From: Escherichia coli
GTDB lineage: Bacteria > Pseudomonadota > Gammaproteobacteria > Enterobacterales > Enterobacteriaceae
Length of the DNA stretch: 64,000 nt
Reading direction: 5' to 3' (one strand)
Assembly: GCF_024298765.1 (NCBI RefSeq)
Contig: NZ_CP101210.1
Made by a program: the position numbers and the translations under genes. Below are positions 2,399 to 21,663 of the stretch, piece by piece. The notes beneath the pieces were generated by a model that saw only the letters and a program-made list of their open reading frames with translations, was not told the DNA's origin and did no database searches. The first letter of the stretch is position 1. Every line of letters starts with the position of its first letter.

Positions 2399-2605
2399 GG
2401 GTAGTTAATATCCTGATTTAGCGAAAAATTAAGCATTCAATACGGGTATTGTGGCATGTTTAACCGTTCAGTTGAAGGTTGCGCCTACACTAAGCATAGT
2501 TGTTGATGAATTTTTCAATATCGCCATAGCTTTCAATTATATTTGAAATTTTGTAAAATATTTTTAGTAGCTTAAATGTGATTCAACATCACTGGAGAAA
2601 GTCTT

Positions 2606-3595
2606 ATGAAACTCGCCGTTTATAGCACAAAACAGTACGACAAGAAGTACCTGCAACAGGTGAACGAGTCCTTTGGCTTTGAGCTGGAATTTTTTGACTT
2701 TCTGCTGACGGAAAAAACCGCTAAAACTGCCAATGGCTGCGAAGCGGTATGTATTTTCGTAAACGATGACGGCAGCCGCCCGGTGCTGGAAGAGCTGAAA
2801 AAGCACGGCGTTAAATATATCGCCCTGCGCTGTGCCGGTTTCAATAACGTCGACCTTGACGCGGCAAAAGAACTGGGGCTGAAAGTAGTCCGTGTTCCAG
2901 CCTATGATCCAGAAGCCGTTGCTGAACACGCCATCGGTATGATGATGACGCTGAACCGTCGTATTCATCGCGCGTATCAGCGTACTCGTGACGCCAACTT
3001 CTCTCTGGAAGGTCTGACCGGCTTTACTATGTATGGAAAAACGGCAGGCGTTATCGGTACCGGTAAAATCGGTGTGGCGATGCTGCGCATTCTGAAAGGT
3101 TTTGGTATGCGTCTGCTGGCGTTCGATCCGTATCCAAGTGCGGCGGCACTGGAACTCGGTGTGGAGTATGTCGATCTGCCAACCCTGTTCTCTGAATCAG
3201 ACGTTATCTCTCTGCACTGCCCGCTGACACCGGAAAACTACCATCTGTTGAACGAAGCCGCCTTCGATCAGATGAAAAATGGCGTGATGATCGTCAATAC
3301 CAGTCGCGGTGCATTGATTGATTCTCAGGCGGCAATTGAAGCGCTGAAAAATCAGAAAATTGGTTCGTTGGGTATGGACGTGTATGAGAACGAACGCGAT
3401 CTGTTCTTTGAAGATAAATCCAACGACGTAATTCAGGATGACGTATTCCGTCGCCTGTCTGCCTGCCACAACGTGCTGTTTACCGGGCATCAGGCATTCC
3501 TGACAGCAGAAGCGCTGACCAGTATTTCTCAGACTACGCTGCAAAACTTAAGCAATCTGGAAAAAGGCGAAACCTGCCCGAACGAACTGGTTTAA
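2606..3595 (+). CDS. ldhA: Fermentative D-lactate dehydrogenase (D-2-hydroxyacid dehydrogenase family)
   Basis: 329-aa ORF; NAD-binding motif GVIGTGKIG; N-terminus MKLAVYSTKQYDKKYLQQVNE matches remembered LdhA. Confidence 0.97.
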   Translation: MKLAVYSTKQYDKKYLQQVNESFGFELEFFDFLLTEKTAKTANGCEAVCIFVNDDGSRPVLEELKKHGVKYIALRCAGFNNVDLDAAKELGLKVVRVPAYDPEAVAEHAIGMMMTLNRRIHRAYQRTRDANFSLEGLTGFTMYGKTAGVIGTGKIGVAMLRILKGFGMRLLAFDPYPSAAALELGVEYVDLPTLFSESDVISLHCPLTPENYHLLNEAAFDQMKNGVMIVNTSRGALIDSQAAIEALKNQKIGSLGMDVYENERDLFFEDKSNDVIQDDVFRRLSACHNVLFTGHQAFLTAEALTSISQTTLQNLSNLEKGETCPNELV

Positions 3596-4664: not shown

Positions 4665-7600
4665 ATGATTACTATTGACGGTAATGGCGCGGTTGCTTCG
4701 GTGGCGTTTCGCACCAGTGAAGTTATCGCCATCTACCCTATTACCCCCAGTTCCACGATGGCAGAACAGGCTGATGCATGGGCCGGAAACGGCTTGAAAA
4801 ACGTTTGGGGAGACACACCACGCGTGGTTGAAATGCAGTCGGAAGCGGGTGCTATCGCTACCGTGCATGGTGCTTTGCAAACTGGTGCCCTCTCAACATC
4901 GTTTACGTCATCGCAGGGTTTGCTGCTGATGATCCCAACGCTGTACAAACTGGCAGGCGAACTGACGCCGTTTGTCCTGCATGTTGCGGCACGTACCGTT
5001 GCCACACATGCACTCTCTATTTTTGGCGATCATTCCGACGTTATGGCGGTGCGCCAGACGGGTTGCGCGATGTTGTGTGCAGCAAGCGTCCAGGAAGCGC
5101 AAGACTTTGCTCTCATTTCGCACATCGCGACGCTGAAAAGCCGCGTGCCATTTATTCATTTCTTTGATGGTTTCCGCACATCTCACGAAATCAATAAAAT
5201 TGTCCCGCTGGCCGATGACACGATTCTTGAACTGATGCCGCAGGCAGAAATTGATGCTCATCGCGCCCGGGCACTCAACCCGGAACATCCGGTGATCCGC
5301 GGTACGTCCGCCAATCCTGACACTTATTTCCAGTCTCGCGAAGCCACCAACCCATGGTACAACGCAGTCTATGACCATGTTGAACAGGCGATGAATGATT
5401 TCGCTGCCGCGACAGGTCGTCAGTATCAGCCGTTTGAGTATTACGGGCATCCGCAAGCGGAACGGGTGATTATCCTGATGGGCTCAGCCATTGGCACATG
5501 TGAAGAAGTGGTTGATGAATTGCTGACCCGTGGCGAAAAAGTCGGCGTGCTGAAAGTTCGCCTGTACCGCCCCTTCTCCGCCAAACACTTGCTGCAAGCT
5601 CTGCCGGGATCCGTGCGCAACGTGGCGGTACTGGACAGAACCAAAGAGTCTGGTGCCCAGGCAGAACCGCTCTATCTGGATGTGATGACCGCACTGGCAG
5701 AAGCCTTTAATAATGGCGAGCGTGAAACCCTGCCCCGTGTCATTGGTGGGCGCTATGGTCTTTCATCCAAAGAATTTGGCCCGGACTGTGTACTGGCGGT
5801 ATTTGCCGAGCTCAACGCGGCTAAACCGAAAGCGCGCTTTACGGTTGGTATTTACGATGATGTAACCAATCTGTCACTGCCGTTGCCGGAAAACACCCTA
5901 CCAAACTCGGCGAAACTGGAAGCCTTGTTTTATGGCCTTGGTAGTGATGGCAGCGTTTCCGCGACCAAAAACAATATCAAGATTATCGGAAATTCCACGC
6001 CGTGGTACGCACAGGGCTATTTTGTTTACGACTCCAAAAAGGCGGGCGGCCTGACGGTTTCTCACCTTCGCGTGAGCGAACAGCCGATTCGTTCCGCTTA
6101 TCTCATTTCCCAGGCTGATTTTGTTGGCTGCCACCAGTTGCAGTTTATCGATAAATATCAGATGGCTGAGCGTTTAAAACCTGGCGGCATTTTCCTGCTT
6201 AACACGCCGTACAGCGCAGCTGAAGTGTGGTCGCGCTTGCCGCAGGAAGTTCAGGCCGTGCTAAACCAGAAAAAAGCGCGCTTCTATGTGATTAACGCGG
6301 CGAAAATCGCCCGCGAATGTGGCCTGGCGGCCCGTATTAATACCGTCATGCAGATGGCTTTTTTCCATCTGACGCAGATTCTGCCTGGCGATAGCGCCCT
6401 GGCAGAATTGCAGGGTGCGATTGCCAAAAGTTACAGTAGCAAAGGCCAGGATCTGGTGGAACGCAACTGGCAGGCTCTGGCGCTGGCACGTGAATCCGTA
6501 GAAGAAGTTCCGTTGCAGCCAGTTAATCCGCATAGCGCCAATCGACCGCCAGTGGTTTCCGATGCCGCTCCTGATTTCGTGAAAACCGTAACCGCTGCGA
6601 TGCTCGCCGGGCTTGGTGATGCCCTCCCCGTTTCGGCGCTGCCGCCAGACGGCACCTGGCCGATGGGCACCACGCGCTGGGAAAAACGCAATATCGCCGA
6701 AGAGATCCCCATCTGGAAAGAGGAACTCTGTACCCAATGTAACCACTGCGTCGCTGCTTGCCCACACTCAGCTATTCGCGCAAAAGTGGTACCGCCTGAA
6801 GCGATGGAAAACGCCCCTGCCAGCCTGCATTCGCTGGATGTGAAATCGCGTGATATGCGCGGGCAGAAATATGTCTTGCAGGTGGCTCCGGAAGATTGCA
6901 CCGGTTGTAACCTGTGCGTCGAAGTTTGCCCGGCGAAAGACCGTCAGAATCCAGAGATTAAAGCCATCAATATGATGTCTCGCCTGGAACATGTCGAAGA
7001 AGAGAAAATCAATTACGATTTCTTCCTCAACCTCCCAGAAATCGACCGTAGCAAACTGGAACGTATTGATATTCGTACATCGCAGCTGATTACACCGCTG
7101 TTTGAATATTCAGGTGCTTGCTCCGGTTGTGGCGAGACGCCGTATATTAAATTGCTGACTCAGCTCTATGGTGACCGGATGTTGATCGCTAACGCCACCG
7201 GCTGTTCTTCAATTTATGGCGGTAACCTGCCCTCTACACCGTATACCACCGATGCCAACGGTCGTGGACCGGCATGGGCGAACTCGCTATTTGAAGATAA
7301 CGCCGAATTTGGCCTTGGTTTCCGCCTGACGGTCGATCAACACCGTGTCCGCGTGCTGCGTCTGCTGGATCAATTTGCCGATAAAATCCCGGCGGAATTA
7401 CTAACTGCGTTGAAATCAGACGCCAAGCCAGAGGTTCGTCGTGAACAGGTTGCAGCTTTACGCCAGCAACTCAAAGATGTTGCCGAAGCACATGAACTGC
7501 TACGTGACGCAGATGCACTGGTAGAAAAATCAATCTGGCTGATTGGTGGTGATGGCTGGGCTTACGATATCGGCTTTGGCGGTCTGGATCATGTATTGAG

Positions 7601-8189
7601 TTTGACGGAAAACGTCAACATTCTGGTGCTGGATACGCAATGCTATTCCAACACCGGTGGTCAGGCGTCGAAAGCGACACCGCTGGGTGCAGTAACTAAG
7701 TTCGGCGAGCACGGCAAACGTAAAGCGCGTAAAGATCTTGGCGTCAGCATGATGATGTACGGTCATGTTTATGTGGCGCAGATTTCTCTCGGCGCGCAGC
7801 TCAACCAGACGGTGAAAGCGATTCAGGAAGCGGAAGCGTATCCGGGGCCATCGCTGATCATCGCTTATAGCCCCTGTGAAGAGCATGGTTACGATCTGGC
7901 ACTCAGTCACGACCAGATGCGCCAACTCACTGCCACCGGCTTCTGGCCGCTATATCGCTTCGATCCACGTCGAGCCGATGAAGGCAAACTGCCGCTGGCA
8001 CTGGATTCACGCCCGCCGTCAGAAGCACTGGAAGAAACGTTACTTCACGAGCAGCGTTTCCGTCGTCTGAATTCGCAGCAGCCAGAAGTGGCAGAACAGT
8101 TATGGAAAGATGCTGCAGCTGATTTGCAAAAACGCTATGACTTCCTGGCACAAATGGCCGGAAAAGCGGAAAAAAGCAACACCGATTAA
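4665..8189 (+). CDS. ydbK: Pyruvate:flavodoxin/ferredoxin oxidoreductase (PFOR)
   Basis: 1174-aa ORF; two 4Fe-4S ferredoxin motifs (CTQCNHCVAACP, CTGCNLCVEVCP); TPP-binding region GGDGW. Confidence 0.97.
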   Translation: MITIDGNGAVASVAFRTSEVIAIYPITPSSTMAEQADAWAGNGLKNVWGDTPRVVEMQSEAGAIATVHGALQTGALSTSFTSSQGLLLMIPTLYKLAGELTPFVLHVAARTVATHALSIFGDHSDVMAVRQTGCAMLCAASVQEAQDFALISHIATLKSRVPFIHFFDGFRTSHEINKIVPLADDTILELMPQAEIDAHRARALNPEHPVIRGTSANPDTYFQSREATNPWYNAVYDHVEQAMNDFAAATGRQYQPFEYYGHPQAERVIILMGSAIGTCEEVVDELLTRGEKVGVLKVRLYRPFSAKHLLQALPGSVRNVAVLDRTKESGAQAEPLYLDVMTALAEAFNNGERETLPRVIGGRYGLSSKEFGPDCVLAVFAELNAAKPKARFTVGIYDDVTNLSLPLPENTLPNSAKLEALFYGLGSDGSVSATKNNIKIIGNSTPWYAQGYFVYDSKKAGGLTVSHLRVSEQPIRSAYLISQADFVGCHQLQFIDKYQMAERLKPGGIFLLNTPYSAAEVWSRLPQEVQAVLNQKKARFYVINAAKIARECGLAARINTVMQMAFFHLTQILPGDSALAELQGAIAKSYSSKGQDLVERNWQALALARESVEEVPLQPVNPHSANRPPVVSDAAPDFVKTVTAAMLAGLGDALPVSALPPDGTWPMGTTRWEKRNIAEEIPIWKEELCTQCNHCVAACPHSAIRAKVVPPEAMENAPASLHSLDVKSRDMRGQKYVLQVAPEDCTGCNLCVEVCPAKDRQNPEIKAINMMSRLEHVEEEKINYDFFLNLPEIDRSKLERIDIRTSQLITPLFEYSGACSGCGETPYIKLLTQLYGDRMLIANATGCSSIYGGNLPSTPYTTDANGRGPAWANSLFEDNAEFGLGFRLTVDQHRVRVLRLLDQFADKIPAELLTALKSDAKPEVRREQVAALRQQLKDVAEAHELLRDADALVEKSIWLIGGDGWAYDIGFGGLDHVLSLTENVNILVLDTQCYSNTGGQASKATPLGAVTKFGEHGKRKARKDLGVSMMMYGHVYVAQISLGAQLNQTVKAIQEAEAYPGPSLIIAYSPCEEHGYDLALSHDQMRQLTATGFWPLYRFDPRRADEGKLPLALDSRPPSEALEETLLHEQRFRRLNSQQPEVAEQLWKDAAADLQKRYDFLAQMAGKAEKSNTD

Positions 8190-8216
8190 ATGCACTGGAT
8201 AAGGATTATCCAATTC

Positions 8217-8255
8217 TAAAAAAAAGCCCGGACGACTGTTCGGGCTTGTCTTTTT
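8217..8255. terminator. Bidirectional intrinsic terminator shared by convergent ydbK (+) and micC (-)
   Basis: GC-rich hairpin (aagcccg ... cgggctt) flanked by an A run on one side and a T run on the other. Confidence 0.75.
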
Positions 8256-8327
8256 ATATGTTGGAAAATCAGTAGCAATGCAATGGCCCAACAGAAAATA
8301 AAATCTGTGACAATAAAGGCATATAAC
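8218..8327 (-). ncRNA. micC: MicC sRNA (Hfq-dependent repressor of ompC/ompD)
   Basis: Reverse complement reads GTTATATGCCTTTATTGTCACAGATTTTATTTTCTGTTGGGCCATTGCATTGCTACTGATTTTCCAACATATAAAAAGACAAGCCCGAACAGTCGTCCGGGCTTTTTTT, matching remembered MicC with about one mismatch; located between ydbK and ompN. Confidence 0.9.
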
Positions 8328-8554: not shown

Positions 8555-9688
8555 ATGAAAAGCAAAGTACTGGCACTTTTAATTCCTGCCCTGCTCGCCG
8601 CAGGTGCTGCACATGCAGCCGAAGTTTATAATAAAGACGGCAACAAATTAGATCTGTATGGCAAAGTTGATGGCCTGCATTATTTTTCTGATAATTCAGC
8701 GAAAGATGGCGACCAGAGCTATGCGCGTCTGGGTTTTAAAGGCGAAACCCAAATTAACGATCAACTCACTGGCTACGGTCAATGGGAATACAATATTCAG
8801 GCAAACAACACTGAATCTTCAACAAACCAGTCATGGACCCGTCTGGCATTTGCCGGACTGAAATTTGCAGATTACGGTTCTTTCGATTACGGACGTAATT
8901 ATGGCGTAATGTACGACATCGAAGGCTGGACCGATATGCTGCCTGAATTTGGCGGTGACTCTTATACCAATGCAGACAACTTTATGACTGGTCGTGCCAA
9001 CGGCGTCGCGACTTATCGTAATACTGATTTCTTCGGTCTGGTAAATGGTCTGAACTTCGCGGTGCAGTATCAAGGTAACAACGAAGGAGCCAGTAATGGT
9101 CAGGAAGGCACCAACAACGGACGTGATGTTCGCCATGAAAACGGTGACGGCTGGGGTCTTTCCACAACATATGATTTAGGCATGGGCTTTAGCGCTGGTG
9201 CGGCATACACCTCTTCTGACCGCACCAATGACCAGGTTAACCATACTGCGGCGGGTGGTGATAAAGCAGACGCGTGGACTGCTGGGCTAAAATACGATGC
9301 TAACAATATTTACCTGGCAACCATGTATTCAGAAACGCGTAACATGACCCCGTTTGGCGACAGCGATTATGCAGTTGCGAACAAAACCCAGAACTTTGAA
9401 GTTACTGCACAGTACCAGTTTGATTTTGGTCTGCGTCCGGCAGTCTCTTTCCTGATGTCTAAAGGCCGTGACCTGCACGCTGCCGGTGGTGCAGACAACC
9501 CGGCAGGTGTTGATGATAAAGATCTGGTTAAATACGCCGATGTTGGCGCGACTTACTATTTCAATAAAAACATGTCCACTTATGTTGACTATAAAATCAA
9601 CCTGTTGGATGAAGATGACAGCTTCTACGCTGCCAACGGCATCTCTACCGATGATATTGTCGCTTTAGGTCTGGTTTATCAGTTCTAA
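8555..9688 (+). CDS. ompN: Outer membrane porin OmpN (OmpC/OmpF family)
   Basis: 377-aa ORF; signal peptide [21 protein letters not shown]; C-terminal porin signature ending YQF. Confidence 0.95.
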
Positions 9689-9694
9689 ATCCTC

Positions 9695-9720
9695 CTGCCC
9701 GCTGTTATGGCGGGCTTTTT
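9695..9720 (+). terminator. Intrinsic terminator after ompN
   Basis: Hairpin ctgcccgc / ggcgggc followed by TTTTT. Confidence 0.7.
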
Positions 9721-10270: not shown

Positions 10271-10295
10271 GCCCGCACATTGCTGCGGGCTTTTT
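10271..10295 (+). terminator. Intrinsic terminator after uspF
   Basis: Hairpin gcccgca / tgcgggc followed by TTTTT. Confidence 0.7.
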
Positions 10296-13136: not shown

Positions 13137-13258
13137 AAAAAAAAGCCGACTCATCAAAGTCGGCGTCGTACGAATCAATTGTGCTATGCAGTAATTCAAA
13201 AAAGGAAGTAAGACAATATGGAGCGCAACGCCCATCGCTTGACGTTGCATTCACCTGC
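13137..13258 (-). ncRNA. fnrS: FnrS sRNA (FNR-activated, anaerobic)
   Basis: Reverse complement reads GCAGGTGAATGCAACGTCAAGCGATGGGCGTTGCGCTCCATATTGTCTTACTTCC...GACTTTGATGAGTCGGCTTTTTTTT with terminal hairpin and U tail; located between zntB and dbpA. Confidence 0.9.
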
Positions 13259-21190: not shown

Positions 21191-21285
21191 ACCGGTCACC
21201 AGGACCCCAGGCCGGATTTAAGACGAGGATGCACTGCTGTGTGTACTGTAGAGTCTGGCGGATGTCGACAGGCTCTATTTTTTTA
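21191..21285 (+). ncRNA. mcaS: McaS (IsrA) sRNA, CsrA-binding regulator of motility and biofilm
   Basis: ACCGGTCACCAGGACCCCAGGCCGGATTTAAGACGAGGATGCACTGCTGTGTGTACTGTAGAGTCTGGCGGATGTCGACAGGCTCTATTTTTTT matches remembered McaS core with GGA motifs and intrinsic terminator; from memory, so the 5' boundary is approximate. Confidence 0.65.
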
Positions 21286-21663
21286 TTCATTTTTTAGCTC
21301 TGTAAATAACCACATTCTCGCCGGGATTGGGGAATGAGTGACGAGATCAGTGGTGTCTGGCGGCTATCACGCCACAGAATCAAATAACAGATAGCCTACG
21401 GTAAAATTTCGCTGACTGGAATTATCCCACCCTCGATCCATGTGATGGCTTGCCCTCATTTCTTCAGGCAGAAAAATCAAAAAATCGCTTTATGCTATCA
21501 GACTGCGACAAACCAGACGCGAAACTGGGTACTTACTATTCGTTAGTCTTGCCCTATCCGCTTATCTTTTTGGTGGTATGGCTGCTGATGTTGCTGGCGT
21601 GGTATCTTGTTGGTCTGCCGATAGGTCCGGGGATTTACCCACGTTTGTCTTAAGAGAGAACGG

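Follow-up and report, generated by a model that had tools for sequence, protein, structure and literature searches.

Transcription units that face each other can reportedly share one terminator, the classic bidirectional case being said to be that of tonB/P14, described by Postle and Good in 1985. The Hfq-binding 3′ module of small regulatory RNAs (sRNAs) is likewise said to consist of a terminator hairpin and a long U tail which follow an A/U-rich single strand, as in the examples attributed to Otaka et al. in 2011. Bidirectional terminators between convergent genes are prevalent in E. coli, according to the summary of Ju et al. 2019 that forms part of bioRxiv 10.1101/2022.10.23.513370.

The hairpin that separates ydbK from micC in the window studied here (the whole stretch of Escherichia coli DNA that was analysed, 64,000 nt in length) resembles the E. 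coli bidirectional intrinsic terminators in that a single GC-rich hairpin, flanked by an A tract and a T tract, is located between convergent units, with 3′ ends on both strands falling within the element (the MicC end as given by annotation). It differs from them in that one of the partners is an sRNA, the terminator being part of a functional RNA, and in that the two directions are unequal in the quality of their U tracts and, within E. coli, in the energy of the hairpin as well. As in the Hfq-binding 3′ modules of sRNAs, MicC ends with AAUAAAAAGACAA, the hairpin and U8, and a tail of U7–U10 is invariant across genera; unlike in those modules, the same DNA also ends an opposing mRNA, and the A-rich pre-hairpin segment of MicC also serves as template for the U tract of ydbK. 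On its promoter side, the locus is reminiscent of micF-ompC, since micC and the porin gene ompN are divergent, like micF and ompC (PMC5745476), but the likeness is limited to that side; the convergent terminator shared with ydbK is specific to micC.

Both halves of this arrangement are already known, MicC with its terminator from Rfam (RF00121) and the ydbK 3′ end from published tables (PMC10687069). A shared ydbK/micC terminator follows trivially from such public data, and neither this kind of element nor the locus is new; a full-text search found no paper that explicitly names this hairpin a bidirectional terminator or a terminator shared by ydbK and micC. The evidence described below makes it probable that the element is a canonical factor-independent (intrinsic) terminator which acts in both orientations between the convergent ydbK/nifJ and micC.

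Structure and sequence context of the hairpin

Read on the plus strand, the element at positions 8217–8255 comprises a T at 8217, an A8 tract (8218–8225), the stem halves GCCCGGAC (8226–8233) and GTTCGGGC (8238–8245) with the loop GACT (8234–8237) between them, and the T-rich tail TTGTCTTTTT (8246–8255), which provides the U tract for ydbK termination. On the minus strand, the A8 tract corresponds to the U8 tail of MicC, and 8246–8255 is the A-rich AAAAAGACAA segment of MicC, directly 5′ of the MicC terminator hairpin. The hairpin has eight GC-rich pairs, two A-U pairs, and a 4-nt loop. In the alignment of the window with K-12, the K-12 A tract is A9, compared with A8 in the window. The claim of the first-pass annotation that a single GC-rich hairpin lies between an A tract and a T tract is borne out by the sequence as well as by folds on both strands. 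The plus strand RNA folds with -16.9 kcal/mol (z -4.64) and the minus strand RNA with -14.6 kcal/mol (z -3.91); in either case, 0/200 dinucleotide shuffles folded as well.

The two strands differ at 8231/8240: in the common form of E. coli, the ydbK RNA has a G·U pair at this position, where MicC has an A·C mismatch, and the energy of the hairpin is -13.3 kcal/mol in the ydbK sense versus -9.3 kcal/mol in the MicC sense. A consensus scanner returned the hairpin as the top plus strand terminator-like site (10 pairs, 6 GC); the minus strand version was not picked up by this scanner, since an A·C mismatch takes the place of the G·U pair on that strand. The number of terminator-like sites in the region (9 observed, 7.8 +/- 2.8 in shuffles) is not in excess of expectation, and a match to the consensus pattern is therefore no evidence by itself. 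Our own hairpin scan, which tolerates one mismatch (a strict Watson-Crick version misses the element, due to the G·T position), identified it as the sole hairpin in 64 kb that combines an A-rich head with a T-rich tail, 0.23 per window being expected from Markov resamples. An origin of the hairpin from a REP-like repeat was rejected, since its sequence is unique in the window, with a single occurrence of the hairpin 24-mer in the 64 kb.

The weighted T score in the window is 5.2 for the U8 on the MicC side and 3.2 for UUGUCUUUUU on the ydbK side, which is interrupted and has 7 U in 10 nt. Both strands thus show what characterizes an intrinsic terminator, namely a GC-rich stem with a short loop and a U-rich tract 3′ of the stem, and the succession of A tract, hairpin and T tract between convergent units is the layout of a bidirectional terminator.

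Downstream of ydbK on the same strand and divergent from micC is the porin gene ompN (8555..9688, plus strand), assigned from the ORF list, NCBIfam porin models, RefSeq, and synteny. Clean terminator-like hairpins with T5 tails follow ompN (9697–9715) and uspF (10271–10290) on the plus strand; the weighted T scores of these two terminators in the window are 4.2–4.3, and the uspF hairpin agrees with a TRS-mapped K-12 3′ end (PMC10687069). Rfam models also matched FnrS (13141–13258, minus strand, 134.8 bits) and McaS (21191–21286, plus strand, 112.8 bits). The FnrS terminator (approximately 13143–13166) has an A8 head on the plus strand, without a T tail, and appears to be unidirectional, unlike the MicC hairpin. 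Over the region, the window is 99% identical to K-12, and it shares 100% identity with several non-K-12 E. coli strains.

The 3′ end of the ydbK mRNA

The ydbK (nifJ) coding sequence occupies 4665..8189 on the plus strand, as supported by the ORF list, NCBIfam, and the RefSeq annotation, and codes for a pyruvate:ferredoxin/flavodoxin oxidoreductase of 1174 aa, which scored 1630.6 bits against NCBIfam TIGR02176 (cutoff 911). Its TAA stop codon is at 8187–8189, and the hairpin begins 36 nt beyond it. The 3′ end of the transcript has been mapped in K-12 MG1655: a TRS analysis of 3′ ends places the end of ydbK at (-)1437194, within a peak from 1437193 to 1437202, and gives the upstream sequence as ...GCCCGGACGACUGUUCGGGCUUGUCUUUUU (PMC10687069, Supplementary Data 2 and 3). 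In the alignment of the window with K-12, (-)1437194 corresponds to position 8254, which is 9 nt beyond the GC stem, and the TRS peak, when read against the K-12 sequence, spans exactly the U-rich tail UUGUCUUUUU. Transfer of the published end by alignment delimits a ydbK 3′ UTR of 8190..8254 (plus strand). Intrinsic release typically occurs 7–9 nt after the stem; an end located 9 nt after the stem therefore fits intrinsic release.

The TRS signal R, defined as 1 minus the local read-through, was 0.93, 0.97, and 1.0 for the ydbK end in three data sheets (PMC10687069). That the hairpin ends the mRNA of ydbK (PFOR), as had been proposed from the sequence, is thus supported by the published K-12 3′ end at 8254 and by these R values. 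The same analysis labels the ydbK end ‘AP in TU’ (alternative primary in TU), indicating that ydbK is not the last gene of the annotated unit; EcoCyc, as referred to in PMC10687069, does not treat ydbK as the final gene of its transcription unit.

Between the ydbK stop and the terminator, the MFE fold of 8190–8262 also contains a small, AT-rich and perfect palindrome, TGGATAA-GGA-TTATCCA (8196..8212, plus strand), which begins 7 nt after the stop, within the 3′ UTR. Among the orthologues it is confined to Escherichia, whose species keep it with changes in the loop; at this place, the other genera carry either unrelated sequence or different small hairpins.

MicC and its 3′ end

MicC, an sRNA of approximately 109–110 nt, is encoded on the minus strand at 8218..8327 (Rfam, K-12 coordinates), with its 5′ end GUUAUAUGCC at 8327 and its 3′ end in the U tract. 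The match to Rfam RF00121 extends from 8330 to 8210 on the minus strand, covers model positions 1–123 of 123, and scored 125.8 bits (gathering score 90); the hairpin and the U tail form the terminal helix of this model. Together with the plus strand ORF at 4665..8189, the minus strand RF00121 match upholds the earlier description of ydbK and micC as convergent units, a layout that is kept in the orthologues.

In the K-12 RefSeq record, micC (ncRNA b4427) is annotated as 1437121..1437231; its end falls on the ninth U, which closes the tract, at a distance of 28 nt from the ydbK stop. The length of MicC has also been quoted as 109 nt (PMC5745476), which likewise places the 3′ end inside the U tract. 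Termination of MicC by the hairpin, the second half of the proposal made in the first-pass annotation, accordingly has support from the K-12 annotation, the Rfam model, and the conserved U tail. Unlike the ydbK end, which comes from published mapping, the MicC 3′ end has been placed from annotation, model and conservation, and in the strain analysed here it would lie at or near the last U residues of the tract. Mapping of 3′ ends on both strands, which had been suggested as a check, thus holds for ydbK, with its published TRS end in the tail, and does not extend to MicC: the Term-seq tables of Adams 2021 have no entry for micC, ydbK or coordinates 14371xx/14372xx, and the TRS tables (PMC10687069) have no plus strand (K-12) end at the MicC terminator. 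The missing MicC end in these tables probably reflects low expression of MicC.

The MicC terminator module is probably also the Hfq-binding 3′ end of MicC, by analogy with sRNAs in general. RefSeq records of E. coli annotated by PGAP show only nifJ and ompN in this region; among the records examined, micC is annotated in that of K-12 MG1655 alone, so that the non-K-12 RefSeq/PGAP records examined leave micC without annotation.

Conservation among Enterobacteriaceae

Orthologues were searched for with the MicC 5′ motif GTTANATGCCTTTATTNTCA against one genome per species, which yielded 34 enterobacterial loci besides chance matches elsewhere. Loci of micC were found in Escherichia, Citrobacter, Salmonella, Klebsiella, Pseudocitrobacter, and Superficieibacter as well as in MAGs. 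In every locus with enough flanking sequence, nifJ is convergent on micC, and ompN and then uspF are located beyond micC, except in Salmonella arizonae and diarizonae. These two subspecies of Salmonella enterica have kept nifJ, the shared hairpin, and micC; they are without ompN, and uspF follows directly after micC.

In an alignment of 35 orthologous sequences from at least six genera, pairing is retained in 99.7% of stem cells, and the loop is not constrained in sequence. Eight of the ten stem pairs are invariant, and one covaries, from C-G to U-A in four sequences. The G at 8231 is present in the window, in K-12, and in one other Escherichia genome; most other species have a perfect stem of about -13.8 kcal/mol on both strands. 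The tail on the MicC side is T7–T10 in all 37 rows (35 distinct orthologous sequences), with weighted T scores of 4.7–6.1. The tail on the ydbK side starts with TTGTC in all orthologues but one, and its weighted T scores range from 2.3 to 3.3. Among the orthologues analysed, a T5 run on the ydbK side occurs in Escherichia only, where the tail TTGTCTTTTT has scores of 3.2–3.3 (2.9 in one case); the tail of Citrobacter and Salmonella is mostly TTGTCAATTT, with a score of about 2.4.

As judged from the alignment, selection on the hairpin and on the MicC U tail is evident, the paired stem and the invariant tail of MicC contrasting with the variable ydbK flank. The U tract on the ydbK side looks like a by-product of the A-rich pre-terminator segment of MicC that is better in some lineages than in others.

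Alleles of E. coli and insertion of IS200

Position 8231 is polymorphic (G/A) within E. coli. A second micC allele, termed allele 2, is carried by roughly 516 of the 5,426 complete genomes of E. coli (about 9.5%; the count is without carriers of IS200). Its central stem-loop, as for example in strain 118UI, has lost 5 nt and differs by several substitutions, and its tail on the ydbK side is TTGTCTCATT, in which the T5 run is broken and the weighted T score is 2.6.

An IS200C element (tnpA) sits precisely within the A tract that separates the ydbK stop from the hairpin (corresponding to 8218–8225 of the window), in 16–17 of the 5,426 complete E. coli genomes, as counted by junction-spanning queries. 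Carriers include F374 (element at 2541–3253 of the retrieved locus), SCU-102, and ETEC4068; MicC is left with a U7 tail in these strains, and ydbK transcripts must cross IS200, with its own end hairpin followed by UUUUCUG, before they reach the shared hairpin. The best matches to allele 2 all carried IS200, but the idea that the insertion is common was rejected on the basis of the junction counts. In the Citrobacter sp. MAG HRGM_Genome_0066, the IS200-end sequence GTGCACAGAAAACCCCCAGCTAGGCTGGGGG... directly follows the MicC hairpin and T7 in the place of nifJ, and the contig ends at this point (positions 1–146 of the retrieved locus). This sequence context suggests an IS200 at the equivalent spot in another genus. 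Many other IS200 copies of E. coli match 7–15 nt past the apparent end of the IS, into ‘aaaaaaagccc...’, which means either that the IS end includes the A run, or that insertion is preferred beside the A-tract side of terminator-like hairpins.

Possible read-through toward ompN

Co-expression of ydbK and ompN as an operon activated by SoxS has been ascribed to Fabrega 2012, in the paraphrase given by PMC6176095. If so, some polymerases pass the hairpin, and termination in the ydbK direction therefore is not absolute. An RNA reading through would run antisense over all of micC and continue into ompN in the sense direction. In wild-type K-12, cultivated in LB or minimal medium, such read-through is small, at most a few percent, because R is 0.93–1.0.

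A possible function of this leak would be that SoxS-induced read-through from ydbK yields ompN mRNA together with MicC antisense RNA, or polymerase collisions with micC transcription. This would link oxidative stress to the porin switch, and could coexist with intrinsic termination in both orientations; we nevertheless regard it as unlikely. The reported operon and its activation by SoxS favor the idea, as does the label ‘alternative primary in TU’ in the TRS tables (PMC10687069), but the read-through deduced from R in the wild type is low, and paraquat caused no noticeable induction of ompN-lacZ or micC-lacZ fusions (PMC5745476), although promoter fusions of this kind are blind to read-through from ydbK. 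The terminator score on the ydbK side is below those of the neighboring ompN and uspF terminators, consistent with a leak. The gene order nifJ > micC < ompN > is conserved in most genera, yet arizonae and diarizonae retain the shared hairpin without ompN, and no report of an antisense effect on MicC was found in the literature looked through.

It is also conceivable, albeit rather improbable, that the terminator acts as a strain-variable, direction-specific valve, in which the leak of ydbK transcription driven by SoxS or sigma-S is set by the G·U/A·C position and by whether T5 is present (in allele 1, allele 2, and other genera). If this were true, the leaking RNA would be ompN mRNA as well as a perfect antisense to MicC, and redox stress would lower MicC and raise OmpN in a lineage-dependent manner in E. 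coli.

Alternative origins of the ydbK 3′ end

Alternatively, the hairpin might terminate MicC only, whereas ydbK RNAs run on antisense through micC or are stopped downstream by Rho, and are subsequently trimmed to the hairpin by a 3′ exonuclease. Sequencing of RNA 3′ ends does not distinguish between true termination and exonucleolytic trimming to a hairpin, and a ydbK-ompN co-transcript, as reported in the paraphrase of PMC6176095, would be expected if ydbK RNAs run on. The U tract on the ydbK side is interrupted and poorly conserved, the invariant tract being that of MicC only; however, the K-12-type tail has 7 U in the 10 nt that follow a hairpin of -13 to -17 kcal/mol. Trimmed ends, such as those resulting from Rho-dependent termination, usually are nearer to the stem base, whereas the mapped ydbK end is 9 nt beyond the stem, within the U run. 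Furthermore, R values of 0.93–1.0 mean that hardly any reads begin within the next 67 nt. We consider trimming as the origin of the ydbK end improbable, and infer intrinsic release rather than processing.

Termination by head-on collisions of converging polymerases (the model of Ju, Wang and Liu), and not by hairpin and U tract alone, is most improbable: convergent genes with 3′ ends overlapping by about 36 nt do show the layout of overlapping bidirectional terminators as outlined in bioRxiv 10.1101/2022.10.23.513370, but the class is described there as unlike intrinsic terminators, while the element between ydbK and micC, with its textbook hairpin and U tracts, resembles a canonical intrinsic terminator on both strands and thus falls outside the collision class of Ju et al. 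2019 as far as that outline goes, and weak expression of MicC in many conditions would make collisions rare, yet ydbK ends sharply.

Probable intrinsic termination in both orientations

Under the preferred explanation, a bidirectional intrinsic terminator, a polymerase coming from ydbK would transcribe the A8 tract and the hairpin, followed by UUGUCUUUUU; once folded, the hairpin (-13 to -17 kcal/mol) would cause the transcript to be released about 9 nt past the stem, at 8254. A polymerase coming from the micC promoter would transcribe AAAAAGACAA, the same hairpin, and U8, and MicC would be released at about 8218–8219. Because both RNAs end in one hairpin, the 3′ ends of the ydbK mRNA and MicC would be complementary over about 36 nt. 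The element would be primarily the terminator of MicC and secondarily that of ydbK, the ydbK direction being weaker and evolutionarily labile; in this direction it probably leaks a little, allowing the reported ydbK-ompN co-transcript. Arguing against such a mechanism, the U tract on the ydbK side is interrupted (UUGUC...), and both the tract of Citrobacter and Salmonella (UUGUCAAUUU) and that of allele 2 (UUGUCUCAUU) are poor. The terminator is asymmetric, and it would be strong on the MicC side, and adequate but slightly leaky for ydbK, the extent of the leak being deduced from the K-12 data.

The agreement of the ydbK and micC annotations with a single terminator shared by the two directions has little significance beyond housekeeping. 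However, the locus is a case in which the functional 3′ module of an sRNA would constrain the terminator of the facing gene, so that the MicC side is strong and the ydbK side is weak and evolvable. The natural alleles of the U tract on the ydbK side provide a ready-made test of U-tract quality in vivo, and a read-through RNA, with ompN in the sense and MicC in the antisense direction, could tie porin control to the SoxS regulon.
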